Shown one piece after another: positions 5,805 through 48,432 of a stretch of DNA of 64,000 nt. The number at the start of each line of letters is the position of its first letter. Position 1 is the first letter of the stretch. Below the pieces are notes generated by a model. It worked only from the letters and a program-made list of their open reading frames with translations, did no database searches and had not been told where the DNA came from. Both the position numbers and the translations under genes were made by a program. The stretch is taken from positions 13,507 through 77,506 of the forward strand of contig CAZMKZ010000001.1 in assembly GCA_964567185.1 (NCBI GenBank). Reading direction: 5' to 3'. The DNA comes from an uncultured Thermodesulfobacteriota bacterium (GTDB taxonomy: Bacteria > Desulfobacterota > GWC2-55-46 > JADFVP01).

Positions 5805-6304
5805 CTTTTGTCTACCTTTATAATCACATTCTCGATAATATCGGCAACACCCTTGAAGTCGTTAATATCAAGGAGGGGCCTGTCAGTATCCACGGGCCCG
5901 TCGCTTACAACGGCAATGAGGGAGGTATCGTCAATACAGGCGCGGGCCTCAGAGACCGACTTTCTGAAGACCTCAATCTTGGGCAGGTTTCCCGTCTTGT
6001 AGCCCTCTGTTATGACAACGTCAAGGTCGTTCATGAACGTGCCGATAGCCTCGGTAAGGGGCATCTCAACATCGGTGCTCTTGATAAAGGCCATTTTTTC
6101 CTTTGAGGTAATGAGAACGCTCACGGCCCCGGCCTGCTTGTGACGCCACGAGTCTTTTCCCTCGCGGTCTATCTCGAACCTGTGGGCATCGTGTTTTATG
6201 GTGCCCACCCTGAACCCCCTTTCCGTTAGTTCGGCCACTACCTTTACGATAAGCGTAGTCTTGCCGGAGCCGGAAAACCCTATTATGGATACCGCTGGAA
6301 TCAT
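5801..6304 (-). CDS. mobB: molybdopterin-guanine dinucleotide biosynthesis adaptor MobB
   Basis: P-loop IGFSGSGKTTL ... GTIKHDAHRFEIDREGKDSW is the MobB signature. Confidence 0.85.
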   Translation of the reverse strand: MIPAVSIIGFSGSGKTTLIVKVVAELTERGFRVGTIKHDAHRFEIDREGKDSWRHKQAGAVSVLITSKEKMAFIKSTDVEMPLTEAIGTFMNDLDVVITEGYKTGNLPKIEVFRKSVSEARACIDDTSLIAVVSDGPVDTDRPLLDINDFKGVADIIENVIIKVDKR

Positions 6305-36788: not shown

Positions 36789-37910
36789 ATGCAGCGCATA
36801 TTCGCCCTCCTCGAAAGAGACCTCAGAAAATTCATCCGCAACCCATTTGTGGTAGCCGTCTCCATAGCCATGCCCATTGTCTACCTCATCATAATGGGTT
36901 CGAGCTTTCAGGGCGAACTGAAGCGGCTTTCCGTGGCCGTGGTGGACCAGGACAACGGCGAGTACGCAAGGACGGTTATTGATAACCTGCGCGCCATTGC
37001 CCAGGGCCCGGCCTCCATACGTGTCCTTACTTTAACGGACAAGGCCTCTGCCATGAAGGGCCTCAAAGACGGCCTTTTCAAGGCCGTCGTGGTCCTGCCG
37101 CGGGATTTTTCCAGACGGGCGCTACGCGGCGAGACCGCCGTTGTAGGTCTTTTTCTCGATAATGTGGAGACCATCCCCTCGGCCACAATAGAGAGAAGCG
37201 TCCGCGGCGCCGTCGCCAATGTTTACGGTGATTTTGTCTCCATGCGCGCCGAGCGCGGCAAGGTCATCGTGCGCTCGATAAACACCTACAGAAAGATAGA
37301 TTACGACCAGGGCCTTATACCCGGCGTGGTAATCATGGCCATATTCATCGGGGCCATGACAACGGGCGTTTTCAACGTGGTGATGGACAGGTTTCTCGGT
37401 ATTGACGAGAGCTACTTCCTTACGCCGCTGACAAGGCTCGACATAGTCGTCTCTCTTGTCATAAGCGGGCTCCTCGTGACCACCGTGCTTGCCGTAATCG
37501 TACTCTTTCTCTCTACCCTCACGGCGGGGCTCCAAATCTGGACCTTTCTTACCATCACGGGTTTTCTCTCGGTGCTGGCAATATTCGTCCTGACGGCGCT
37601 TTCGCTTCAGGGGCTTATGTTCCTCGTCATGGGCAGGGCCACGCATCCGAGGATACTGGGCATAATGGGCGGTTTTCTCAATGTCATATTCTTTTTTCCA
37701 AGCGGGGCCATATATCCTGTTGAGAGTTTTCCTCCCTGGCTGCAGGCCTTTGCCAGCGTAAACCCCGAGACATACTCGGTGCACGCCCTGAAGGCCGTGC
37801 TTTTCAAGGGCGCCGGCCTGCACGCCATAAGCAACGACCTGCTCTTTCTGGCGGGTTTTTCCTTTGTTTCCCTTACGGTGAGCATCATAACCTTTAAACG
37901 CTCTCTTTAA
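36789..37910 (+). CDS. ABC-2 family transporter permease
   Basis: 373 aa with an N-terminal TM helix, a large periplasmic loop, then 5 TM helices, as in ABC-2 permeases. Confidence 0.75.
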   Translation: MQRIFALLERDLRKFIRNPFVVAVSIAMPIVYLIIMGSSFQGELKRLSVAVVDQDNGEYARTVIDNLRAIAQGPASIRVLTLTDKASAMKGLKDGLFKAVVVLPRDFSRRALRGETAVVGLFLDNVETIPSATIERSVRGAVANVYGDFVSMRAERGKVIVRSINTYRKIDYDQGLIPGVVIMAIFIGAMTTGVFNVVMDRFLGIDESYFLTPLTRLDIVVSLVISGLLVTTVLAVIVLFLSTLTAGLQIWTFLTITGFLSVLAIFVLTALSLQGLMFLVMGRATHPRILGIMGGFLNVIFFFPSGAIYPVESFPPWLQAFASVNPETYSVHALKAVLFKGAGLHAISNDLLFLAGFSFVSLTVSIITFKRSL

Positions 37911-37941
37911 CCGCGCCCTGTAACACTTTGTAAAAATTCCC

Positions 37942-37970
37942 TTGACAGGGCCGTGAGGATATATTATTGT
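37942..37970 (+). promoter_or_regulatory. candidate promoter TTGACA-17 nt-TATTGT driving the riboswitch transcript
   Basis: -35 hexamer at 37942-37947 and -10 at 37965-37970, about 25 nt upstream of the riboswitch P1 stem. Confidence 0.45.
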
Positions 37971-37995
37971 CATAGCACAATTGAATAAATGGATA

Positions 37996-38150
37996 TCTTA
38001 TCCAGAGTGGTGGAGGGACTGGCCCGATGAAACCACAGCAACCGGTGCATCACTGCATGTCAGGTGCTAAATCCAGCAGGGTTTGCAAAAACCCTGAAAG
38101 ATAAGAAGAACTAAGAGACCCTCTTCTTATCCCAAGAAGAGTTTTTTTTT
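37996..38150 (+). ncRNA. SAM-I (S-box) riboswitch with intrinsic terminator expression platform
   Basis: TCTTATCCAGAGTGGTGGAGGGACTGGCCCGATGAAACCACAGCAACC...CTGAAAGATAAGAAG. The GGTGGAGGGACTGGCCCGATGAAACC core matches the SAM-I kink-turn/P2-P3 consensus, and P1 is TCTTATC/GATAAGA. A terminator CTCTTCTT-ATCCC-AAGAAGAG plus T9 lies at 38121-38150, and its 5' arm can alternatively pair with the P1 3' strand. Confidence 0.85.
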
Positions 38151-38218
38151 GCTCGTTTTTCGAGATGGCTTTAAGGCGAGTTTCTGTTTTTAACGTATCA
38201 GGCACAGGAGAAACCTAG

Positions 38219-39472
38219 ATGAAGTACATGAAAGGATTAAAGTGCAGGGAGTGCGGGAAGCGCTATCCCCTGGAACCGATCCATGTCTGCGAGTTCTGTT
38301 TCGGGCCCCTTGAGGTGGACTATGATTACGAGAAGATAGGCAAGTCCATTACCAGAGACATCATTACCACCAGAGCCCCTAATATGTGGAGATACAGGGA
38401 GTTGCTTCCCATAGACGCCGAGCCCACGGTGGGCAACAACTCCGGATTTACGCCCCTTGTAAGGGCCTATAACCTGGGCGAGGCCCTGGGCGTTAAAGAA
38501 CTGTACATAAAGAACGACGCCGTTAATTTCCCGACCCTCTCTTTCAAGGACAGGGTGGTCTCCGTGGCCATCTCAAGGGCCAGAGAGATGGGCTTTGACG
38601 TCATCGCCTGCGCCTCAACGGGCAACCTGGCCAACTCCGTTGCCGCCAACTCCGCGGCCTGCGGCCTTGATAGCTATGTCTTCATACCCTATGACCTTGA
38701 GCAGACCAAGATAACGGGAACCCTTATCTACGGCACTAACCTCGTGGGCATAAAGGGGACCTATGACGAGGTGAACAGGCTCTGCAGCGAGATAGGCGGC
38801 AAATACGGATGGGCCTTTGTAAACATCAACATCAGACCCTTTTATGCCGAGGGCTCCAAGACATTCGGCTACGAGATAGCCGAGCAGTTGGGCTGGAAGC
38901 TCCCGCAGCACGTTATTGTGCCCATGGCCGGGGGCTCTCTCATCACAAAGATATGGAAGGCCTTCAAGGAGTTCAAGGCCCTTGGTTTTGTCGATTCTCC
39001 GCCGGCGAAGATATACGGCGCGCAGGCAACGGGATGCGCCCCCATAGTAACGGCTGTTAAGGAAAAGAGCGAGCTCATCCGTCCGGTCATGCCCGATACT
39101 ATCGCCAAATCCCTTGCCATCGGCAACCCGGCCGACGGCTTTTACTCCGCAAGGGCCATCAGGGAGAGCAATGGCTGGGCCGAGGACGTTTCAGATGAAG
39201 AGATAATCGAGGCCATGAAGCTCCTTGCCGAGACAGAGGGCATTTTTGCCGAGACAGCCGGCGGCGTTACCGTGGGCGTGACTAAAAAACTCATCGAGCA
39301 GGGCAGGATACCCCGTGACGAGTCCATAGTCATCTCCATTACGGGCAACGGCCTTAAGACTCAGGAGTGCCTGGCGGGAAAAATCGCCGAGCCCCCTGTA
39401 ATAGAGGCTAAACTTGCCGAGTTCGACGCCCTGCTTGAGGGCGGCTCCGTGCGGAAGACGGCGGTAAAATAA
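38219..39472 (+). CDS. threonine synthase-like PLP enzyme (fold type II) with an N-terminal zinc ribbon; candidate O-phosphohomoserine-dependent homocysteine synthase (MetM-like, MA1715-like)
   Basis: CRECGKRYPLEPIHVCEFCFGPLEV zinc ribbon. PLP lysine motif FPTLSFKDRVVSV. ThrC-like length of 417 aa. First gene after a SAM riboswitch. Confidence 0.8.
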   Translation: MKYMKGLKCRECGKRYPLEPIHVCEFCFGPLEVDYDYEKIGKSITRDIITTRAPNMWRYRELLPIDAEPTVGNNSGFTPLVRAYNLGEALGVKELYIKNDAVNFPTLSFKDRVVSVAISRAREMGFDVIACASTGNLANSVAANSAACGLDSYVFIPYDLEQTKITGTLIYGTNLVGIKGTYDEVNRLCSEIGGKYGWAFVNINIRPFYAEGSKTFGYEIAEQLGWKLPQHVIVPMAGGSLITKIWKAFKEFKALGFVDSPPAKIYGAQATGCAPIVTAVKEKSELIRPVMPDTIAKSLAIGNPADGFYSARAIRESNGWAEDVSDEEIIEAMKLLAETEGIFAETAGGVTVGVTKKLIEQGRIPRDESIVISITGNGLKTQECLAGKIAEPPVIEAKLAEFDALLEGGSVRKTAVK

Positions 39473-39677
39473 GGGACGGGGCGTGATCGGGGGAGGCCCG
39501 TAGAGTATTGGCGCGGGGCAGGATTAACCGGCAGGGCCTGTGCAATATAACAAGGGCTGCCCGGTAGAGAGGCGGGTTCGGCTTGTAATAGTGACCCTCT
39601 TTCTGTTATCATTAGGGTTTAAGAAATATAAAAATTTTCCCTCTAAGAGGGGCGGTTTTCTTAAGGAGGTTTTTTTT

Positions 39678-40673
39678 ATGACGGACCATTTCATAGAGGA
39701 TAAGAGCCATAAGGTAGACCTTGACCTTGAGAACCTCAGCGGTAAGGTTAACTTCGGCGACCTCAAATCCGGGGGGTTCATAAAGCAGCGCCAGAAGGAC
39801 CTCTTTACCGTAAGGCTCCGCTGTCCCGGCGGCAGGATGACTACGGACAAGCTCGTGGAGATATCGAGGCTCGCAAAAAAATACAGCAAAGAGGGTGTGG
39901 TGCACTTCAGCTACCGCCAATCCCTTGAGATACTATATGTGGATTATAAGGACTTTCACGCCCTTGTGGGCGAGCTTGAGAAGATAGGTCAGAAAGTGGC
40001 CTCATGCGGGCCCCGTGTAAGGGTGCCCACTGCCTGCGGCGGATGCGAGTATAACCCCAACGGGCTTATAGACGCGCAGAAGATGGCCCGCATGGTGGAC
40101 GGTAAGTTCTTCGGAACAAATACGCCGCATAAGTTCAAGACCTCTTTTTCGGGCTGTCCCATAGATTGCTCAAGGACCGTTGAGATGGACCTCGGTTTTC
40201 AGGGCGTAGTGGACCCCGAGTGGGAGCAGGACCTCTGCACGGGATGCACCATCTGCTCCGAGGCCTGTAAAGAGGGGGCCATTGAGGCCCACCCCGATAC
40301 AGGAGAACCAATCTTCGACGTTAGTAAATGCCTTTACTGCGCCGACTGCATACGGGCCTGTCCCACCGAGGCGTGGAAACCCGGCAAGCACGGCTTTCTT
40401 GTGCGCATTGGCGGCAAACATGGCCGTCATCCCCTTGAGGGCGTTGAAATCTGCCGTTTCCTACCGGAGGAAAAGGTAAGCGACGCCATAGAGATGACCG
40501 TCAGGTGGTATAAAGAAAACGGCAAGAGTTTCGAGAGGATAGGGCACACCCTGCAGAGGGTGGGCATGGACGGTTATCTTGACCACATGGCCCCGCTCTT
40601 CGGTGATTATGCCGTTAGACCAAAGCATCCGCCCACGGACCGTCCGCTGATCAATAAGCCCGAAGGGGCCTGA
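39678..40673 (+). CDS. small dissimilatory-type-like sulfite reductase (Dsr-like, alSiR-type) with an inserted 2x[4Fe-4S] ferredoxin domain (start ATG 39678 with RBS AAGGAGG)
   Basis: NIR_SIR-type Cys cluster SCGPRVRVPTACGGC ... GCPIDCSRT. Ferredoxin motifs CTGCTICSEAC and CLYCADCIRACP. Confidence 0.7.
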   Translation: MTDHFIEDKSHKVDLDLENLSGKVNFGDLKSGGFIKQRQKDLFTVRLRCPGGRMTTDKLVEISRLAKKYSKEGVVHFSYRQSLEILYVDYKDFHALVGELEKIGQKVASCGPRVRVPTACGGCEYNPNGLIDAQKMARMVDGKFFGTNTPHKFKTSFSGCPIDCSRTVEMDLGFQGVVDPEWEQDLCTGCTICSEACKEGAIEAHPDTGEPIFDVSKCLYCADCIRACPTEAWKPGKHGFLVRIGGKHGRHPLEGVEICRFLPEEKVSDAIEMTVRWYKENGKSFERIGHTLQRVGMDGYLDHMAPLFGDYAVRPKHPPTDRPLINKPEGA

Positions 40674-40788
40674 TTAGCCGCGCTTCATTGGGTCGGGTAT
40701 GGATAATGGGGGGTAATCGGCGCAGTGGGTTTTCAGCTTTCGCCGGGAACCCGAAACATAACAGATCAGGACAAACGGTAAGGTTGAT

Positions 40789-41028
40789 ATGAGTGAGATA
40801 AAGGCAAAGGACAGCATCGATTTAAGGGGCGTCATGTGTCCCACAAACTTTGTAAAGACCAAGCTCAAGCTCGAGGCCATGAACCCCGGCGAGATACTCG
40901 AAGTGGTGCTTGACAGCGGCGAGCCTATCGCCAACGTGCCGAAAAGCGTCAAGGAAGAGGGACACAAGATAGTCAAGGTAAGCAAAGACGACGGCTCATT
41001 CAGGATTTTGATAGAGGTCTCTGAATAG
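40789..41028 (+). CDS. TusA/SirA-family sulfurtransferase-like protein
   Basis: 79 aa. ...IDLRGVMCPTNFVKTKLKLEAM... is a Cys-Pro TusA-like motif in a two-layer alpha/beta fold. Confidence 0.65.
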   Translation: MSEIKAKDSIDLRGVMCPTNFVKTKLKLEAMNPGEILEVVLDSGEPIANVPKSVKEEGHKIVKVSKDDGSFRILIEVSE

Positions 41029-41063
41029 CCCCTAATAAAGTTTTCAAGTACAAGGAGGAGAGT

Positions 41064-41348
41064 ATGTCAGTAAAGGTGAGGATACCCACACCCCTGAGGA
41101 AGATTACAAAGGACAACGACGAGGTCACTGCCGACGGGGCCACGGTCTCCGAGGTAATAGACGACCTGGAGAAAAACTATCCGGGAATAAAGGAGAGGAT
41201 ATGCGAGGCCGACGGGAACCTCCGCCGCTTTGTAAACCTCTATCTCAATGACGAGGACATTCGCTTCAAGGATAACCTCGCTACTGCACTGAAAGACAAC
41301 GATGAACTCTCCATCATTCCGGCCATCGCCGGAGGAGGTGGCCTTTGA
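41064..41348 (+). CDS. ThiS/MoaD-family sulfur-carrier protein (CysO/HcyS/MetO-like) whose C-terminus ...AIAGGGG-L* needs proteolytic exposure of Gly-Gly
   Basis: 94 aa beta-grasp pattern with a glycine-rich C-terminus followed by a single Leu before the stop at 41346-41348. Confidence 0.7.
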   Translation: MSVKVRIPTPLRKITKDNDEVTADGATVSEVIDDLEKNYPGIKERICEADGNLRRFVNLYLNDEDIRFKDNLATALKDNDELSIIPAIAGGGGL

Positions 41349-41581
41349 AAAAAAAGGTCTATCTAACCTATCCTCCGGAGAGGGTGAGAGAGCCTCTTCT
41401 CTGTGAGTGCGTGCGCAGGTTCAATGTCGTAACCAACATAAGGCAGGCCTCTGTTACGGACAAGATAGGCATCGTGGCCCTTGAGCTCGAAGGCGAGCCC
41501 ACGGAGATAGAAAAGGCCATGGACTTTTTTACTGAAAACGGCGTGAAGGTCGAGCCTATTGAGATGAATATTATCGAGTAG
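41345..41581 (+). CDS. stand-alone NIL-domain protein (the MetN C-terminal-type domain). TTG start overlaps the carrier-gene stop by 4 nt (TTGA); RBS GGAGGAGGTG
   Basis: KVYLTYPPERVREPLLCECVRRFNVVTNIRQASVTDKIGIVALELEGEPTEIEKAMDFFTENGVKVEPIE aligns by eye to the MetN NIL domain (LTFTGE...PLISEL.RRFGVDVNIL.GNIE...G.L.VELEGD...ALAYL.E.GV.VEVL). Confidence 0.7.
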   Translation: MKKKVYLTYPPERVREPLLCECVRRFNVVTNIRQASVTDKIGIVALELEGEPTEIEKAMDFFTENGVKVEPIEMNIIE

Positions 41582-41679
41582 CGCCCTCTCACCTTTCCCC
41601 GTCCTTGTCCAAAGGACGGGGAGCCTTGCAAATTCAACTCCCATTGGATTCTTTTCCTTGAAATCACTGCATATTATTC

Positions 41680-41706
41680 TTGACAAACCCGCTAAGGTAT
41701 TATAAT
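41680..41706 (+). promoter_or_regulatory. possible internal promoter (TTGACA-15 nt-TATAAT) upstream of the CysM-like gene, preceded by a 10-bp hairpin CCCCGTCCTT-GTCCA-AAGGACGGGG at 41594-41619
   Basis: Hexamers and hairpin seen directly. The spacer is short at 15 nt. Confidence 0.3.
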
Positions 41707-41810
41707 TTAAAAACTTGATTGTTTTAGTAAGGTAATAAAAAATGCCTTGTAAAAAGCGAGGTTTTAAGGCGCCTCTCCATAATGCTTAACATAATTCCAA
41801 GAGGCCTTGA

Positions 41811-42767
41811 ATGAGCAGCCATACCTTGAAGAGTTTTGACGCAGGGAACGAGTTTGCCATCCCGAAGGCGAGGTCCTCGGCCCTTGACCTTGTGGGCAAT
41901 ACGCCCCTTGTGAGGATAAACAGCATTACAGCGGGTCTTCCAGCCGGCGTAGAGGTATACGCCAAGCTCGAGTCCGCCAACCCCGGGGGCTCTGTAAAGG
42001 ACAGGCCGGCGCTCCGTATGATAGAAGACGCCGAGAAGAGCGGAAGGCTTACCAGGGATAAGATAATACTGGACTCCACATCGGGAAACACGGGCATTGC
42101 CTATGCGTGGATAGGCGCCGTAAAGGGCCATCGCGTAGAGCTGGTGGTTCCGGAAAACGTCAGCGCCGAGAGAAAAAAGATACTCGACGCCTTTGGGGCC
42201 AAGGTCATATTTTCAAGCCCCTTCGAGGGCTCCGACGGTGCGATACGTCTTGCCTGGAAGCTCTACGTGGATAACCCCGAAAAGTACTGCAAGCTCGATC
42301 AGTACAATAACCCCTCCAACCCCCTTGCCCATTACCATGGCACGGGAGTTGAGATAATCGAGCAGACAGGGGGCAGGATCACGCACTTTGTCACCACCAT
42401 AGGCACGGGCGGCACCATAATGGGGACCATGCGCAGGCTCAAGGAGTTTAACAGCAATATCGAAGTAACCGCCGTTGAGCCCGACAACCCCATGCATGGG
42501 CTTGAGGGCCTGAAACACATGGCCTCGTCCATAGTGCCGGGCATCTATCACGAGGACTCGCTGGACAGGAAGATACCGGCCTCCACCGAAGAATCTTACG
42601 AGATGGCCAAGAGGCTAGCCCGTGAAGAGGGCCTTCTTGTGGGGCAGTCATCGGGGGCGGCCATGCTCGGAGCGCTCAAGGTGGCCATGGAGCTTAAAGA
42701 GGGTCTTGTTGTGACAATATTCCCCGACGGCGGAGATAAGTACCTCTCCACAAGCCTCTGGGATTAA
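41811..42767 (+). CDS. cysteine synthase-like PLP enzyme (CysM/CysK family, fold type II)
   Basis: GNTPLVRINSI...VYAKLESANPGGSVKDRPALRMIEDAEKSGRL...DSTSGNTGIAYAWIGAVKGH is the classic CysK/CysM N-terminal half, including the PLP lysine. Confidence 0.85.
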   Translation: MSSHTLKSFDAGNEFAIPKARSSALDLVGNTPLVRINSITAGLPAGVEVYAKLESANPGGSVKDRPALRMIEDAEKSGRLTRDKIILDSTSGNTGIAYAWIGAVKGHRVELVVPENVSAERKKILDAFGAKVIFSSPFEGSDGAIRLAWKLYVDNPEKYCKLDQYNNPSNPLAHYHGTGVEIIEQTGGRITHFVTTIGTGGTIMGTMRRLKEFNSNIEVTAVEPDNPMHGLEGLKHMASSIVPGIYHEDSLDRKIPASTEESYEMAKRLAREEGLLVGQSSGAAMLGALKVAMELKEGLVVTIFPDGGDKYLSTSLWD

Positions 42768-43010
42768 GGGCTACGGGGAGCCCGGGCAGATTATTATTTT
42801 AAATGGCTGACAACAGCCGGTATTGATTTTTTTGGCCTGTCTTTTTTTGAAAAAAGAAGGCCACGCGGTTTTTTTTGATGGTTTCGGCTTCACGGGTTAT
42901 GCTTTGCTTTGTCCATCGTGCAAGTGTTTCCATGCGGCTACAGGCCGCTTATAAATGTGATTAAAGGGGCGTATTGCCCATAACGTGTAAATAAAGATAA
43001 GGGGCAAGTA

Positions 43011-43463
43011 ATGGGTCTACTCTCAAAGTTCAAGAAAAAGAATAAGCTGAAGGTGCCTAAGGACGTTTACGATATCATCATTGAACATGCCAGAGAGGAG
43101 TATCCCCATGAGTGTTGCGGAGTTCTCATAGGTAACGCCATGATGGGCAGAAAGATATTCTACGCCGACAAATGCACGAACCTGAACCGCGAGAGCGCAC
43201 ATAACAGGTATCTCATGGACCCCAAGGAGATAAATCTTGCCGATAAGGGTGCGCGCTCGCAGAGCCTTGAGCTTATGGGCTTTTATCACTCTCATCCGGA
43301 CCATCCGGACAGGCCCTCGGAGTACGACAGGGAGATGGCCCAGCCCGGATACTCATATATAATAGTCTCCGTAAAGGGCGGTACCGAGTTCTCCTTGAAG
43401 TCATGGACCTTTAACGAGGACGATGAACCCTTCAAGGAAGAGCCCGTGGAGATAGGCAAATAA
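43011..43463 (+). CDS. JAMM/MPN+ family metalloprotease (Mec+/HcyD/QbsD-like)
   Basis: E...ECCG, HSHPDHPDRPSEYD (JAMM motif HxHx7Sx2D). 150 aa. Confidence 0.85.
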   Translation: MGLLSKFKKKNKLKVPKDVYDIIIEHAREEYPHECCGVLIGNAMMGRKIFYADKCTNLNRESAHNRYLMDPKEINLADKGARSQSLELMGFYHSHPDHPDRPSEYDREMAQPGYSYIIVSVKGGTEFSLKSWTFNEDDEPFKEEPVEIGK

Positions 43464-43584
43464 AAACCCGGAGGGGTATGTTTGCAGTATACTTTCGGCG
43501 TTAGCGTCCCTGTAATGGGGTGAGTTTTCTTTTTTTGCCGCGATACTACATTTTGTTTTTGCATAGAGGGGGTTAGAGGTCAAG

Positions 43585-44394
43585 ATGGATTTTACCGATG
43601 AACAGATAGAGCGTTACTCAAGGCATATCATACTTCCGGAGGTAGGCGGAAAGGGGCAGGCAAAGCTCCTTGAGTCCAGGGTCTTTGTCCTCGGCGCGGG
43701 GGGGCTCGGTTCTCCGGCCCTGCTTTACCTTGCCGCGGCGGGCGTGGGCACCATAGGGGTTGCAGACGGCGACGTTGTGGATGTAAGCAACCTTCAGCGC
43801 CAGATAATACACGACAACAATACCGTTGGTATGCCAAAGGTGGATAGCGCGCGAAAGTCCATTGAGGCCCTTAATCCCGATGTTGAGGTAAAGACCTTTA
43901 ACGGCAGACTTGATACGGAGAACATCAGAGAGGTCCTTCGGGATTACGATGTGGTCCTTGACGGCTCTGATAATTTTCCAACGCGCTACCTCATGAACGA
44001 CGCCTCTTTTTTCGAGGGCAAGACCCTTGTCTCGGGGTCCATGTTCAGGTTTGACGGGCAGGTCTCTGTCTTCAAGCCGCAGGAGGGCTTTCCCTGTTAC
44101 AGATGCCTCTACCCGGAGCCCCCGCCAAAGGGCATGGTTCCGTCCTGTCAGGAGGCCGGTGTGCTTGGGGCCCTTGCGGGAGTTATAGGGGTACTGCAGG
44201 CCGTGGAGGCCATAAAAGAGATACTCTCCATCGGCAAATCCCTTGCCGGCGAGCTCTTGATATTCGACGCCCTTGCCATGAGTTTCCGCAAGGTCAAGGT
44301 GCGCACAGACCCTGATTGCGCGCTCTGCGGCGGGAATGCTACCATAAAGGAGCTCTCGCTCTATGAGCAGGCCCCATGCGAGCTGCGTACCTGA
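43585..44394 (+). CDS. ThiF/MoeB/HcyF-type E1-like adenylyltransferase (no rhodanese domain)
   Basis: RYSRHIILPEVGGKGQAKLLESRVFVLGAGGLGSPALLYLAAAGVG nucleotide-binding motif. C-terminal Zn motif CYRC...CALCGG. Confidence 0.85.
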   Translation: MDFTDEQIERYSRHIILPEVGGKGQAKLLESRVFVLGAGGLGSPALLYLAAAGVGTIGVADGDVVDVSNLQRQIIHDNNTVGMPKVDSARKSIEALNPDVEVKTFNGRLDTENIREVLRDYDVVLDGSDNFPTRYLMNDASFFEGKTLVSGSMFRFDGQVSVFKPQEGFPCYRCLYPEPPPKGMVPSCQEAGVLGALAGVIGVLQAVEAIKEILSIGKSLAGELLIFDALAMSFRKVKVRTDPDCALCGGNATIKELSLYEQAPCELRT

Positions 44395-44461
44395 TTCGGC
44401 TTTTCGGACTTATGCCGCAAACAGGGGACGGAGAAAGCGGTCTTTTACCTGAGGCGGTTGA

Positions 44462-45697
44462 GTGGTATTGAAAAGCCTGGATTACTTCAAGAACCCCGGA
44501 GCCCTTAAGATAGACCTTATGCTGAGGGGGGCGGCCATAGAAGACCCCCTTGTGAAGGCGCATGCCTGCGGGGCCTCTGGCATAGATATACTCCTGCCTA
44601 AAAAGACCCTCGTAAACATCCCCTGCGAAGACTGGTTTACCGTGCGCTCCCCTTATCTCATTAAAAAGTCTGAAAAGGGGTATGTCCTTACAAACGGCAA
44701 GGCCGAGGTCAGGGTAAGCATACTTCCGCCGCCGAAGTTTTACGGACTGAAGACAAGTTCAGGCGTAAGGCTTGGAGAAATAGCCAGCACTCACGGGAGT
44801 TACACCGTCATAACGCCCGACCAGAGGTGCGCTTTTTTTAAATCAAGCGCCCAGTGCCGTTACTGCGCGGGAAACTTCAGGTCCGACGCCGCCGCGTCCG
44901 GCGCGCGCGTCTATACAGTAGACGAGGTATTAGAGACAGTAAAAGCGGTATTCAGGGAGAGGGCCTCCGGGATAATATACCTCTCAATAGGTTTTGCCGA
45001 GGGCGATGACGGGGGTATAAAATTTCTTGAGCCCTATGTAAGGGCCATTAAGGGGCATTTTAACTGCCTTGTCGCAGTAGAGGCCCTGCCCCCCGCGCGA
45101 AACGAGTGGATCGACAGGGCGTACGCCAGCGGCGTTGATTCACTGCTCTATAACCTTGATATCTTTGATAAGGAGCTTTTTTCCATAATCTGCCCGGGCA
45201 GGGCCGGCCTCATAGGCAGGAAGAGGACCCTTGAAGCCCTGAAATACGCCGCGGGTATCTTCCCTAACGGCACGGTGGCCTCGCACCTCATTGTGGGGCT
45301 TGAACCGCCGGGTTCCACTATCATGGGCATAGATTATCTTACGGATATCGGCGTAGTGCCCATACTGCCCATATTCCGGCCTTCAAGGGAGAGGCCCCTT
45401 GATGTTACGGACCTTCATGCCGAGGTGATTATACCGGTATATCAGCACCTGTACCGGTCCTTGAAGAAAAAGGGCATTAACTTCAACTGGGTCCGCGACA
45501 TAAGCATGGTGACAACCCCCGTGGAGGGCAGGTTCCTCCTTGGGGAAAAAGAGGGCTCAGCCTCTCTGCTTGATAATTTTTACGGCTCAAAGCTCGGCCT
45601 TAAGACGGCATGGGGGCTCTCGGCCCTTCGAAGGCGGCTGCGGGTAAAAAAGCCCGCCAATGAAGAAAACCCCCCAGGCGGGTCTGAAAAGACATAA
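44462..45697 (+). CDS. uncharacterised protein with the Cys triad CAFFKSSAQCRYC (CX8CX2C). Possibly a non-canonical radical-SAM-like TIM-barrel enzyme, or alternatively the COG1900/DUF39 homocysteine-synthesis protein
   Basis: GTG start. 411 aa. Glycine-rich stretch IYLSIGFAEGDDGG about 35 aa after the Cys triad, and later ...VPILPIFRPSRERPL, reminiscent of radical SAM beta-strand motifs. No canonical CX3CX2C. Confidence 0.35.
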   Translation: MVLKSLDYFKNPGALKIDLMLRGAAIEDPLVKAHACGASGIDILLPKKTLVNIPCEDWFTVRSPYLIKKSEKGYVLTNGKAEVRVSILPPPKFYGLKTSSGVRLGEIASTHGSYTVITPDQRCAFFKSSAQCRYCAGNFRSDAAASGARVYTVDEVLETVKAVFRERASGIIYLSIGFAEGDDGGIKFLEPYVRAIKGHFNCLVAVEALPPARNEWIDRAYASGVDSLLYNLDIFDKELFSIICPGRAGLIGRKRTLEALKYAAGIFPNGTVASHLIVGLEPPGSTIMGIDYLTDIGVVPILPIFRPSRERPLDVTDLHAEVIIPVYQHLYRSLKKKGINFNWVRDISMVTTPVEGRFLLGEKEGSASLLDNFYGSKLGLKTAWGLSALRRRLRVKKPANEENPPGGSEKT

Positions 45698-45710
45698 AGG
45701 GAGTATTACC

Positions 45711-47135
45711 GTGAGAGTGGAGATAGACAGGAGGCCCATATCAATAATCATCGCCAATAAGGCGCTGAGGCCCCTTTTTTTCCTTCTCCTTACGGTGGGA
45801 TTTTTCTCATTCCTATACCTCCCCGTGCCCGAGGGGCTGGGGCAGGGCGGCATGAGGGCCATAGCCGTCTTTCTTCTATGCCTTGTGCTCTGGGTCTCAA
45901 ATGCCGTTCCCGTGGCCATTACGGGGCTCTTCGCCATAGTCCTCGTGCCGCTTCTGGGCATACTGCCAAGGGGCGATACGTATTCCCTATTCGGCAATGA
46001 GGCCGTGTTTTTCATACTCGGCGCCTTTATCCTCTCCGGGGCGGTCATGCAGTCCGGCCTCTCGAACAGGGTGGCCCTGCGGCTGATGGAAAAATACGGC
46101 GGCTCTCCGAAGAGGCTTATCATAAGCATATTTCTTCTCGCCGCGGCACTCTCATTCGTAATGAGCGAGCACGCCGTTGCGGCCATGCTCTTTCCCATAG
46201 TGCTTGAGATATCAAAGAGCCTGAAGCTCCGGCCCGGCGTTTCCAACTACGGAAAGCTCCTCTTCTTTGCCCTTGCCTGGGGTTCGGTCATAGGCGGGGT
46301 GGGGACCTTTCTCGGCGGAGCGCGTGTGCCCCTTGCCATGGGCATTCTGAAGGAGACCACGGGCTCTACCATAGGCTTTCTGGATTATACCGTGGCCGTC
46401 GCGCCCCTTGTCGTGGTGCTGCTGGTGGTGGGATACATCGTGCTGACAAGGTTCTTTCCCATTGACATCGAGGGCGTAGAGAGCGCGCACGAGGTCATTG
46501 TAAGGCGCGCCCGCGCCCTTGGCAAGGTGCGCCCGGCAGAGTACGCCGTAGGGGCCATACTCCTTATTACCATCTTTTTCTGGGTGACCATTGGCAAGAC
46601 CGTGGGCCTTGCCGCCATCGCCATGGTCTCGGTGATGGCCCTCTTTGTATTGAAGCTCGTAAAGTGGCGTGAAATTGAGGAGTATGTGAACTGGGGAATA
46701 ATCCTCATGTACGGCGGGGCTATTATCCTCGGCACGGCCCTTGACAGGAGCGGCGCCGCCAAATGGATGGTAGACGCCATTATGACTCAATGGGCCGAGA
46801 CGCCGGTGACGGTGCTGGCGCTCTTTTCACTCCTGGCCATACTGCTCACCGAGTCCATGAGCAACGCCGCCGTCATCGCCGTGCTCCTGCCCGTGAGCAT
46901 CGGCATGGCCGGAAGCACCAATATGAGCCCGGAAGTCCTTACCTATGCCGTGGCCATTCCGGCGGGTCTGGCCTTTATGCTGCCCATGAGCACGCCGGCC
47001 AACGCCATCGCCGTATCAAGCGACTACATATCCGTGCGCGATATGGCAAAGGGAGGGGTGATAATGTTCATCACCTCATGGGTCACCTTTAATCTCATGG
47101 CCCATTTTTACTGGCCCCTCATAGGGCTAAGGTAG
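45711..47135 (+). CDS. SLC13/DASS-family anion permease (Na+/sulfate symporter-like). Start at GTG 45711 with RBS AAGGGAG; the track start 45660 overlaps the upstream gene
   Basis: Polytopic. The PVPEGLGQGGMRAIAVFLLCLVLWVSNAVPVAITGLF hairpin-loop motif is typical of DASS transporters. Confidence 0.65.
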   Translation: MRVEIDRRPISIIIANKALRPLFFLLLTVGFFSFLYLPVPEGLGQGGMRAIAVFLLCLVLWVSNAVPVAITGLFAIVLVPLLGILPRGDTYSLFGNEAVFFILGAFILSGAVMQSGLSNRVALRLMEKYGGSPKRLIISIFLLAAALSFVMSEHAVAAMLFPIVLEISKSLKLRPGVSNYGKLLFFALAWGSVIGGVGTFLGGARVPLAMGILKETTGSTIGFLDYTVAVAPLVVVLLVVGYIVLTRFFPIDIEGVESAHEVIVRRARALGKVRPAEYAVGAILLITIFFWVTIGKTVGLAAIAMVSVMALFVLKLVKWREIEEYVNWGIILMYGGAIILGTALDRSGAAKWMVDAIMTQWAETPVTVLALFSLLAILLTESMSNAAVIAVLLPVSIGMAGSTNMSPEVLTYAVAIPAGLAFMLPMSTPANAIAVSSDYISVRDMAKGGVIMFITSWVTFNLMAHFYWPLIGLR

Positions 47136-47724: not shown

Positions 47725-48432
47725 ATGGCAGTAAAGAAGTGGTCTGAAGAAGAACTTAAAGAGGTATCCGCGGAGCTTGAAGACAAGGGGCCGCAGGCGG
47801 CCATTCAGTGGGCCGTGGACAATTTTGAGAGGCAGGACCTGTCCCTTGCCTGTAGCTTCGGCGCCGAGGATGTAGCCCTGGTGGATATGCTCGTGAAGAT
47901 AAAACCTGACGCCAGGATATTTTATCTTGATACAAACAAGCTCTTTAAGGAAACCATTGATGTTATGGAGCGCCTTAAGGAGAAGTACCACATAAACCCT
48001 GAAAAATACTGCACAAAGATGAGCCTTGAGGAGCAGGCCGAAAAATTTGGACCTGAGCTCTGGAAAAAAGACCCCAAGCAGTGTTGCGATATCAGGAAGA
48101 TAAAACCTCTTAGAGAGGCCCTGTCTGGGCTCAGCGCATGGATAACTGGCATAAGAAGGGACCAGGCCCCTGCAAGGGCCAATGCCCCTGTCGTTGGCTG
48201 GGATTCCATGTTCAACCTGGTGAAGATAAACCCCCTTGTCAAATGGACGAGCGACGATGTATGGGATTATATCCGCGCCAATGACGTGCCCTACAATGTG
48301 CTCCACGACAGGAATTATCCCTCCATCGGCTGTGAGCCATGCACCAATGAGGTAAAACCCGGCGAAGACCCCAGGGCCGGAAGATGGGCTGGTTTCAAGA
48401 AGACCGAGTGCGGCCTTCATGACAAATCATAG
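47725..48432 (+). CDS. cysH: assimilatory adenylyl-/phosphoadenylyl-sulfate reductase (CysH family, Fe-S type)
   Basis: PAPS_reduct fold (SFGAEDVALVDMLVKI). Fe-S Cys pairs KQCCDIRK and IGCEPCT. Catalytic C-terminal ECGLH. Confidence 0.85.
   Translation: MAVKKWSEEELKEVSAELEDKGPQAAIQWAVDNFERQDLSLACSFGAEDVALVDMLVKIKPDARIFYLDTNKLFKETIDVMERLKEKYHINPEKYCTKMSLEEQAEKFGPELWKKDPKQCCDIRKIKPLREALSGLSAWITGIRRDQAPARANAPVVGWDSMFNLVKINPLVKWTSDDVWDYIRANDVPYNVLHDRNYPSIGCEPCTNEVKPGEDPRAGRWAGFKKTECGLHDKS

Follow-up and report, generated by a model that had tools for sequence, protein, structure and literature searches.

A conserved stand-alone NIL-domain protein encoded with a ThiS-like sulfur carrier in a riboswitch-headed thiocarboxylate gene cluster, a candidate amino-acid sensor

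The stretch of DNA considered here, hereafter the window, comprises 64,000 nucleotides (nt) of contig CAZMKZ010000001.1 from an uncultured Thermodesulfobacteriota bacterium. On its forward strand lies a cluster of sulfur-metabolism genes, within which a small open reading frame (ORF) encoding a stand-alone NIL-domain protein of 78 amino acids (aa; 41345..41581) adjoins the gene of a ThiS-like sulfur carrier (41064..41348). The NIL ORF begins with a TTG (41345-41347) whose last two bases also belong to the TGA stop (41346-41348) that ends the 94-aa carrier ORF, giving a TTGA overlap, and no in-frame ATG, GTG or TTG is present upstream in the window sequence after the preceding stop. The Shine-Dalgarno sequence of the NIL gene, GGAGGAGGTG (41331..41340, + strand), is made of glycine codons of the carrier, and its final GGAGG ends 6 nt ahead of the TTG. 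An overlapping TTG start with a strong Shine-Dalgarno had been described in the original prediction, made from the letters of the window, and both are present exactly as described. Residues 2-10 of the NIL protein vary little or not at all and make up strand beta1 in the structural model, and the sole internal alternative start is a GTG at codon 13; because the conserved residues lie upstream of that GTG, the TTG is regarded as the start.

The original prediction had aligned the protein by eye, along its whole length, with the C-terminal NIL domain of the methionine importer subunit MetN and had proposed a Pfam search as a check. This placement is confirmed. Residues 5-70 align with positions 3-72 of the 73-position Pfam model PF09383 (NIL) at E 2.6e-15, with 56.5 bits where the gathering score is 24, and a sequence search of the PDB retrieved 3dhx, the C2 domain of E. 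coli MetN on its own (E 8.6e-5). An AlphaFold model built from 19 homologues, with a predicted local distance difference test score (pLDDT) of 88.8, has a beta-alpha-beta-beta-alpha-beta fold, with strands at residues 2-9, 28-37, 42-50 and 68-71 and helices at 18-25 and 52-64. When this model was compared with the PDB by Foldseek, the top 11 matches were all MetN C2 or NIL domains, with template modelling (TM) scores of 0.76-0.84, root-mean-square deviations (rmsd) of 1.4-2.6 A and identities of 29-35%; the best was 3dhw (TM 0.84, rmsd 1.4 A), and 3tui, 3dhx, 2qrr, 2qsw and 3ced were also among them.

On comparative evidence, the 78-aa ORF is a real, conserved gene. A search with it over 5.8 billion proteins returned 513 matches; among the 120 listed, the length is 78 aa, with one of 80 aa, and the 78-aa matches come mainly from Thermodesulfobacteriota and "Deltaproteobacteria" metagenome-assembled genomes (MAGs). 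A NIL profile search over 1.84 billion cluster representatives gave 1111 clusters at E <= 1e-3 and 308 at E <= 1e-10, and a scan of one genome per species gave 464 loci, 80 of which were kept for counts of synteny and junctions. Relatives are annotated as "NIL domain-containing protein", "FeS-binding protein" or "ABC-type methionine transport system ATPase subunit". A free NIL domain, which the original prediction had called unusual, is therefore anything but rare, with hundreds of proteins and 464 genome loci, and it is already publicly labelled "NIL domain-containing protein". Over 19 family members the mean column identity is 80%. Between the window gene and 14 orthologues, changes at the third codon position exceed those at the first and second several-fold (25 against 5 and 6 for locus L001; 41 against 10 and 7 for L005). 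One might still suppose that the ORF is an unexpressed chance frame overlapping the end of the carrier gene, as its weak TTG start and small size would allow. This is hardly conceivable and already contradicted by the Pfam match, the hundreds of orthologues of identical length, a substitution pattern over codon positions typical of coding sequence, the conserved start context and the confidently predicted fold. No second NIL paralogue was found within the window.

What the NIL protein might bind is suggested by comparison with MetN. There the C2 domains pair via a beta strand, bound L-methionine hydrogen-bonds Asn295 of the partner C2 domain, the N295A substitution lowers L-methionine binding to undetectable levels, and the strands bearing Ala299 pair with each other once the dimer is locked and inhibited (PMC6233128); N295A also raises the inhibition constant (Ki) for L-methionine 28-fold (PMC12357092). 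The HMMER alignment to MetN runs without gaps over query residues 7-37 and equates Asn31 with Asn295 and Ala35 with Ala299, and both residues are invariant among the 19 family members. A methionine-binding regulatory role, one of two functions offered by the original prediction, is plausible in light of these two matches and of the S-adenosylmethionine (SAM) riboswitch that heads the cluster. On the other hand, the family has invariant motifs of its own, namely YLTYP, TNIRQA, GVKVEPIE and a C-terminal Glu, which suggest partners other than those of MetN, and the window protein scores 25 bits against a cutoff of 499.7 for the full MetN model TIGR02314. A function as a persulfide or metal carrier was rejected as unlikely, as no Cys or His is conserved among the 19 members; where the window protein has C20 and C22, relatives have Tyr, Val, Ala or Ser.

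All genes of the cluster lie on the + strand. The first encodes a ThrC-like pyridoxal phosphate (PLP) enzyme with an N-terminal zinc ribbon (38219..39472; PALP E 2.2e-69, NinF-type ribbon E 2.5e-10). It is followed by genes for a small sulfite/nitrite-reductase-like (SiR-like) protein with an inserted 2x[4Fe-4S] ferredoxin module (39540..40673; NIR_SIR E 8e-26, NIR_SIR_ferr E 8e-16, Fer4), for a TusA-like sulfurtransferase (40789..41028; PF01206 E 1.9e-22) and for the carrier. The SiR-like ORF likely has its true start at the ATG at 39678; its orthologues are about 320-330 aa long. The carrier is of the ThiS/MoaD/SAMP type (PF02597 E 2.6e-18; NF041918 SAMP1 69.5 bits) and ends in ...PAIAGG-GGL, with a three-residue tail beyond the diglycine; in orthologues the tail has 0-3 residues after an invariant AIAGG. 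Downstream of NIL are encoded a CysM-type cysteine synthase (41811..42767; TIGR01138 cysM E 1.1e-112, cysKM 348.8 bits against a cutoff of 344), a JAMM/Mec-type metalloprotease, the predicted hydrolase of carrier tails and adducts (43011..43463; Prok-JAB E 7.4e-27), a MoeB/ThiF/UbaA-type E1-like adenylyltransferase (43585..44394; ThiF E 1.3e-79, NF004281 323.7 bits against a cutoff of 266) and, as the last gene of the conserved cluster, a variant radical-SAM (rSAM) protein (44462..45697; NF045502 variant_rSAM 166 bits against a cutoff of 125). A Gly-Gly carrier, an E1-like enzyme, a JAMM protease and PLP sulfhydrylases are encoded together, the combination that marks a thiocarboxylate system, and the gene content of the cluster corresponds to that of the routes by which cysteine and homocysteine are made with a protein thiocarboxylate.

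The assignment of the ThrC-like enzyme bears on this interpretation. In its passages on the homocysteine route, the GapMind 2026 preprint (summarising Hasebe et al. 2024) lists the carrier MetO, the hydrolase Mec, the ligase MoeZ and the enzyme MetM, notes that MetO requires C-terminal maturation, and describes MetM as a threonine-synthase homologue "often misannotated as such". The window protein scores 311 bits against the cutoff of 303 of the NCBIfam threonine synthase model, and a PDB sequence search with it found ordinary threonine synthases only. Because a SAM-I riboswitch lies directly upstream, and in view of its constant pairing with the carrier and the GapMind 2026 description, it is probably a MetM-type, carrier-dependent homocysteine synthase rather than a threonine synthase, so that an annotation as "threonine synthase" would be corrected.

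The riboswitch aptamer itself (RF00162; 37995..38107, + strand) matches the full model, positions 1-108, with 94 bits and E 4e-22, against a gathering score of 44.4. Its position upstream marks the unit as methionine-biosynthetic. Of 23 relatives tested, 17, drawn from at least five lineages, likewise have it ahead of the cluster. A terminator-like hairpin with a T-run (38121..38150, + strand; 8-bp stem CTCTTCTT/AAGAAGAG, then TTTTTTTTTG) is probably its expression platform, and a promoter-like site, TTGACA-17-TATTGT (37942..37970, + strand), precedes it, a pattern match only, with 10 of 12 consensus positions. Promoter and terminator scans at the cluster gave no more matches than in shuffled sequence. 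The riboswitch and the carrier-NIL fusions described below are the two most informative facts about the locus, and both had been missed by the original prediction.

At the 80 kept loci, which were scored over 12 kb, some absences being due to contig ends, the order ThrC-like, SiR-like, TusA, ThiS, NIL, CysM, JAMM, MoeB, rSAM is nearly fixed. ThiS is present at 77, the ThrC-like gene at 69, CysM at 61, TusA at 60, MoeB at 56, the SiR-like gene at 55, JAMM at 53 and rSAM at 44. NIL accompanies the ThrC-like gene and ThiS, with no SiR-like and TusA genes nearby, at loci of Verrucomicrobiota, Sumerlaeota, Myxococcales, Binatia, Limnocylindrales and Nitrospirota, and the minimal recurring unit is a ThrC-like gene with ThiS-NIL, as at two fusion loci on long contigs. 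These counts bear on the second function offered by the original prediction, in which NIL docks the Dsr/SiR-like iron-sulfur protein, as in the NIL-ferredoxin homocysteine system of methanogens. The idea draws on the ferredoxin insert of the SiR-like protein, whose gene stands two upstream of NIL, on the covalent union of NIL and ferredoxin in L-aspartate semialdehyde sulfurtransferase (L-ASST) (PMC5764234), and on one database that names a family member "L-aspartate semialdehyde sulfurtransferase ferredoxin". However, the SiR-like gene is absent at 25 of the 80 NIL loci while ThrC-like and ThiS genes remain, including all Verrucomicrobiota, Sumerlaeota, Myxococcales and Binatia examples and the Limnocylindrales and Nitrospirota fusion loci; no NIL-SiR fusion occurs among the best 150 cluster representatives of the profile search; and no DUF39/COG1900 or COG2122 partner is found among the nine cluster genes (38219-45697), the rest of the window not having been scanned for DUF39/COG1900. 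The persistence of NIL without the SiR-like gene argues against docking, which we consider very unlikely, and points to the homocysteine branch.

Other arrangements of these genes were also observed. In four loci (L066, L068, L074, L079) the SAM riboswitch is followed by MoeB, ThrC-like, ThiS, CysM and NIL, after which come mostly a second short MoeB-like ORF and mostly an rSAM gene. In Myxococcales, Binatia and deltaproteobacterial MAGs (L066, L068, L074, L075, L078, L079), NIL follows CysM, not the carrier, and starts with MA(I/V)HRFYLTY. Verrucomicrobiota NIL proteins (L064, L069, L070, L071, L076, L077; gene ends near 6237) are extended at the N-terminus by about 30 aa, a basic stretch rich in Lys, Arg, Thr and Pro; their genes show no obvious start codon at the usual position, and the accompanying carriers end exactly at Gly-Gly. 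Tandem CysM paralogues, two as against one in the window, occur in L047 (6454-8404), L048 (6359-8228) and L059 (2987-4861). The variant rSAM protein, which also has a weaker match to the MSMEG_0568 family, follows the E1 gene in 44 of the 80 related loci.

The junction between carrier and NIL is conserved in its design. A 4-nt NTGA overlap is present in 45 of the 80 loci. The start codon of NIL in the Thermodesulfobacteriota-type group is TTG at 51 loci, GTG at 5 and ATG at 4, and TTG is retained also at loci without an overlap. In most overlapping loci the Ala-Gly-Gly of the carrier is coded GCC-GGA-GGN, which places GGAGG 6-9 nt before the NIL start, and two or three variable tail codons after Gly-Gly form the spacer between them; the diglycine codons of the carrier therefore appear to double as the NIL ribosome-binding site. 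This layout would suit matched production of the two proteins, and NIL translation and its coupling to the carrier are predicted from it.

A more direct association is seen where carrier and NIL form one protein. At 6 of the 80 loci the two are joined in frame (...PAIAGG-linker-KKRVYLTFP...), and a search with such a fusion found at least 120 clusters of 167-189 aa with both the ThiS and the NIL Pfam domain, from Limnocylindrales (Chloroflexota), Nitrospirota and deltaproteobacterial MAGs, labelled merely "MoaD family protein". PAIAGG is invariant in them and the linker has 2-14 residues. In an AlphaFold model of one fusion (predicted TM score 0.52), both domains are well folded and a drop in pLDDT to under 50 coincides exactly with A-G-G, as would be expected of an exposed hinge accessible to a protease. 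When the best 150 cluster representatives were sorted by architecture, 52 were free NIL proteins of up to 90 aa, 62 carried an N-terminal extension (91-135 aa), at least 12 were ThiS-NIL fusions, about 11 were tandem NIL-NIL proteins and 2 were JAMM-NIL proteins. The statement in the original prediction that NIL domains are otherwise known as fusions to MetN or to ferredoxins is not supported, since ThiS-NIL fusions are common and NIL-NIL and JAMM-NIL proteins exist. The tandem form is consistent with a dimer as the working unit.

Several details of these proteins deserve mention. The two JAMM-NIL proteins, P0290 (L087 5692-6405) and P0306, are 237 and 249 aa long; the former was confirmed on its contig, where a gene for 3'-phosphoadenylylsulfate (PAPS) reductase and a ThiS gene lie nearby. 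The NIL-NIL protein P0241 (L088 1213-1707) is encoded between a TusA gene and a gene for an Rrf2-family regulator; the others are P0243, P0247, P0249, P0250, P0264, P0274, P0292, P0307, P0374 and P0380, in a range of 142-193 aa. P0301 (2131 aa) has 13 stretches that match the NIL profile, with 82.9 bits in total; it may be built of repeats, or the matches may be an artefact of composition. A BLAST comparison with the window proteins found nothing. Two candidates were set aside, a ThrC-NIL fusion (P0349), part of which is rich in Arg and Gly, as is typical when a sequence is read out of frame, and a ThrC/ThiS/NIL protein (P0252), which looks chimeric. A programmed frameshift or transcriptional slippage that would yield a carrier-NIL fusion in the window was likewise rejected: the A8 run lies past the TGA, the stretch from Gly-Gly to the stop is variable, and no slippery heptamer is conserved across the 45 overlapping loci. 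Judged from these sequences, the split and fused forms look like evolutionary alternatives, not alternative products.

The fusions invite an explanation in which no ligand need be sensed. NIL would be a cleavable C-terminal pro-domain or processing handle that caps the Gly-Gly of the carrier until JAMM acts; pairing of NIL domains may recruit JAMM, and the window pair may be a frameshift-split fusion whose free NIL keeps a recognition role. Such a handle would account for the abundance of ThiS-GG-linker-NIL fusions with PAIAGG invariant at the junction, for the flexible junction in the fusion model, for the JAMM gene at 5 of the 6 fused genome loci and for the JAMM-NIL fusions, and it agrees with split and fused forms that differ only in reading frame around an A-rich junction and with split carriers that keep 1-3 tail residues in need of trimming. 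But free NIL is under strong purifying selection throughout, the MetN ligand-contact Asn included, and in Verrucomicrobiota and Myxococcales its gene is separate and away from the 3' end of the carrier gene; the Verrucomicrobiota carrier ends exactly at GG and leaves nothing to cap. We regard a mainly processing role as unlikely, and it is in any case compatible with, not exclusive of, ligand sensing.

We favour, though tentatively and with somewhat less than even confidence, a sensor reading. NIL would act as a dimer that senses an amino acid, most likely methionine; it would be produced together with the carrier and would restrain a pathway partner when the product is plentiful; we infer its ligand, dimerisation, target and direction of control. 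NIL would then be an accessory regulatory subunit, ACT-like and of the MetN-C2 type, of a thiocarboxylate pathway for homocysteine/methionine and cysteine. In this pathway, the ThiS-like carrier would be produced with a short tail beyond Gly-Gly, which JAMM would trim, the MoeB-like E1 would adenylate the carrier, and the SiR-like and TusA-like proteins would supply sulfur to give the carrier thiocarboxylate, from which the ThrC-like (MetM-type) enzyme would form homocysteine and CysM cysteine. Co-production of NIL and carrier would be ensured here by the start-stop overlap with its Gly-Gly-codon ribosome-binding site, and elsewhere by a carrier-GG-linker-NIL fusion that would need cleavage by JAMM. 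By analogy with MetN, the beta2 strands (TNIRQA) of two NIL domains may pair, with Asn31 contacting an amino acid bound across their interface; L-methionine is the most likely ligand, and homocysteine is possible. The liganded dimer would hold back the carrier or JAMM, both of them fusion partners, or the ThrC-like enzyme, and the outcome would be a fast protein-level product feedback atop the RNA-level SAM riboswitch. There is a precedent in the ferredoxin subunit of archaeal L-ASST, whose NIL domain has been discussed as a methionine-responsive regulator (10.1101/2025.02.10.637553).

A number of points weigh against a sensor. The riboswitch was undetected in 6 of the 23 relatives. In the window, the ThrC-like and SiR-like genes are about 205 nt apart, with weak matches to promoter and terminator patterns in between, which makes SAM control of NIL less certain here than in compact ThrC-ThiS-NIL operons. 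The comparison with the ligand and interface positions of MetN covers two residues, Asn295 and Ala299, and the MetM identity of the ThrC-like enzyme was assigned by context, not by sequence comparison with the characterised Streptomyces enzyme. The weak TTG start and the purely stoichiometric link to the carrier would also fit a non-regulatory, structural role, and the sensor role of this subfamily is a prediction from sequence, fold and context.

Two further proposals were considered. According to the first, methionine-bound NIL dimers, fused in the ancestral state and acting in trans when split, would block JAMM processing of the carrier Gly-Gly and/or its adenylation by the E1, so that the carrier is matured and charged only under methionine scarcity. 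This more specific scheme, in which NIL would be a safety cap, is in our view rather improbable; if true, it would amount to end-product control of the maturation of a ubiquitin-like protein, a regulatory logic that is not known to have been described for any prokaryotic sulfur carrier. According to the second, NIL handles a substrate or product, binding O-phosphohomoserine, homocysteine or the carrier-Gly-Gly-homocysteine adduct and passing it among the ThrC-like enzyme, the carrier and JAMM. MetN NIL domains do bind a sulfur amino acid, the ThrC-like enzyme and the carrier constantly accompany NIL, and the carrier would be made in step with it. Yet the MetM/MetO/Mec/MoeZ pathway, as far as the relevant passages of GapMind 2026 describe it, names no NIL, so its chemistry appears not to need one; no carrier or chaperone role is known for any NIL domain; and there is no conserved Cys or His for covalent handling. 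A handling role is accordingly doubtful.

The NIL protein and its cluster can be set against several known systems. With the C2 domain of E. coli MetNI (3DHW, 3DHX, 3TUI, 3TUZ, 6CVL), the NIL protein shares the Pfam family, the fold and the invariant counterparts of N295 and A299 on the dimer-interface strand; unlike MetN, it has no ABC ATPase domain, and its cluster contains no transporter genes and is tied to a biosynthetic sulfur carrier. ACT-type regulatory subunits and domains, e.g., in 3-phosphoglycerate dehydrogenase, are small and ferredoxin-like too, and 1sc6, 2ko1 and 3ibw were weaker Foldseek matches. ACT domains dimerise, bind an end-product amino acid at the interface, and occur both free and fused to various pathway enzymes. 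They differ from NIL in belonging to another sequence family, and the partner of NIL would be a ubiquitin-like carrier or a protease, not a classical enzyme. The ThiS-NIL relatives also resemble the ubiquitin and ubiquitin-like fusion precursors that are cut after Gly-Gly by JAMM proteases or deubiquitinases, with a beta-grasp carrier, Gly-Gly, a linker, a second domain and an adjoining JAMM gene; unlike in such precursors, the window carrier and NIL are separate genes, linked in translation by their layout, and cleavage in the fused relatives is putative.

Among homocysteine systems, the NIL-ferredoxin of L-ASST (MA1822 / DvMF_0262, DUF39 homocysteine pathway) is likewise a NIL domain in an unconventional system of anaerobes and is presumed to respond to methionine. 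Unlike the MA1822 type, the window NIL has neither a ferredoxin domain (no Fer4 match) nor a cysteine motif, and its pathway, protein thiocarboxylate with PLP enzymes, differs from the DUF39 route. The Gly-Gly carrier, E1-like enzyme, JAMM, CysM and ThrC homologue match, as far as the accessible parts of the pathway descriptions go, CysO-CysM-Mec-MoeZ of Mycobacterium, HcyS-HcyD-HcyF-MetY of Wolinella and MetO-MetM-Mec-MoeZ of Streptomyces; to these the cluster adds genes for SiR-like, TusA-like and variant radical-SAM proteins and the SAM riboswitch. No NIL protein or carrier-NIL fusion was found in those parts of the descriptions. Similarly, no paper that links "NIL domain" with "sulfur carrier" was found among the open-access papers searched, six of which mention "NIL domain", and an earlier mention elsewhere is possible. 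We therefore class the NIL protein as a known sensor domain whose tie to a ubiquitin-like sulfur carrier is, as far as those sources go, undescribed.

It is only recently that routes to cysteine and homocysteine via protein thiocarboxylates joined the known core of metabolism. The description of the MetM/MetO route reportedly dates from 2024, and we know of nothing on how flux through thiocarboxylate routes is controlled at the protein level. NIL is a concrete and widely conserved candidate for such control. It has been linked to the carrier repeatedly in evolution, through predicted translational coupling or as a fusion behind Gly-Gly, and is fused to JAMM as well. If the sensor reading is true, the use of the NIL domain extends from transport, where it serves trans-inhibition, to biosynthesis, there is an explanation for the many proteins of about 171 aa annotated as "MoaD family protein", and a bacterial ubiquitin-like precursor has a metabolite sensor as its C-terminal partner.

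Non-coding features flank the NIL gene on its downstream side. A GC-rich hairpin with a 10-bp stem, CCCCGTCCTT/AAGGACGGGG, and a 5-nt loop (41597..41621, + strand) begins 16 nt past the NIL stop; it has no T-run, was read from the sequence and was not called by the terminator scan, and it may be a transcript-end or stabilising element. A similar hairpin is found at the same position past NIL in L002 and L006. Further on, a conserved block of about 100 nt (41672..41770, + strand) stands between NIL and cysM, with 65 invariant columns over 8 aligned relatives and flanks that cannot be aligned. It contains TTGACA (41680-41685) and TATAAT (41701-41706) with a 15-nt spacer, followed by an inverted repeat of the type TAAGGTA-N7-TACCTTA, and no Rfam match was found for it. 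As its sequence suggests, a cysM-JAMM-moeB-rSAM unit may have a promoter of its own here, with an operator or a leader hairpin. Because of this block, the gap of about 205 nt upstream and scans at the level of shuffled sequence, the exact transcription units within the cluster are uncertain. No other structured RNA was found in 37000-46500, where a match to the COG2908 RNA (E 0.095) fell far under its gathering score. Downstream of the cluster, ORF translations indicate a large membrane permease gene (45660-47135, + strand) and a gene whose product resembles PAPS or adenylylsulfate (APS) reductase (47725-48432, + strand), and both fit a wider sulfur-assimilation region.

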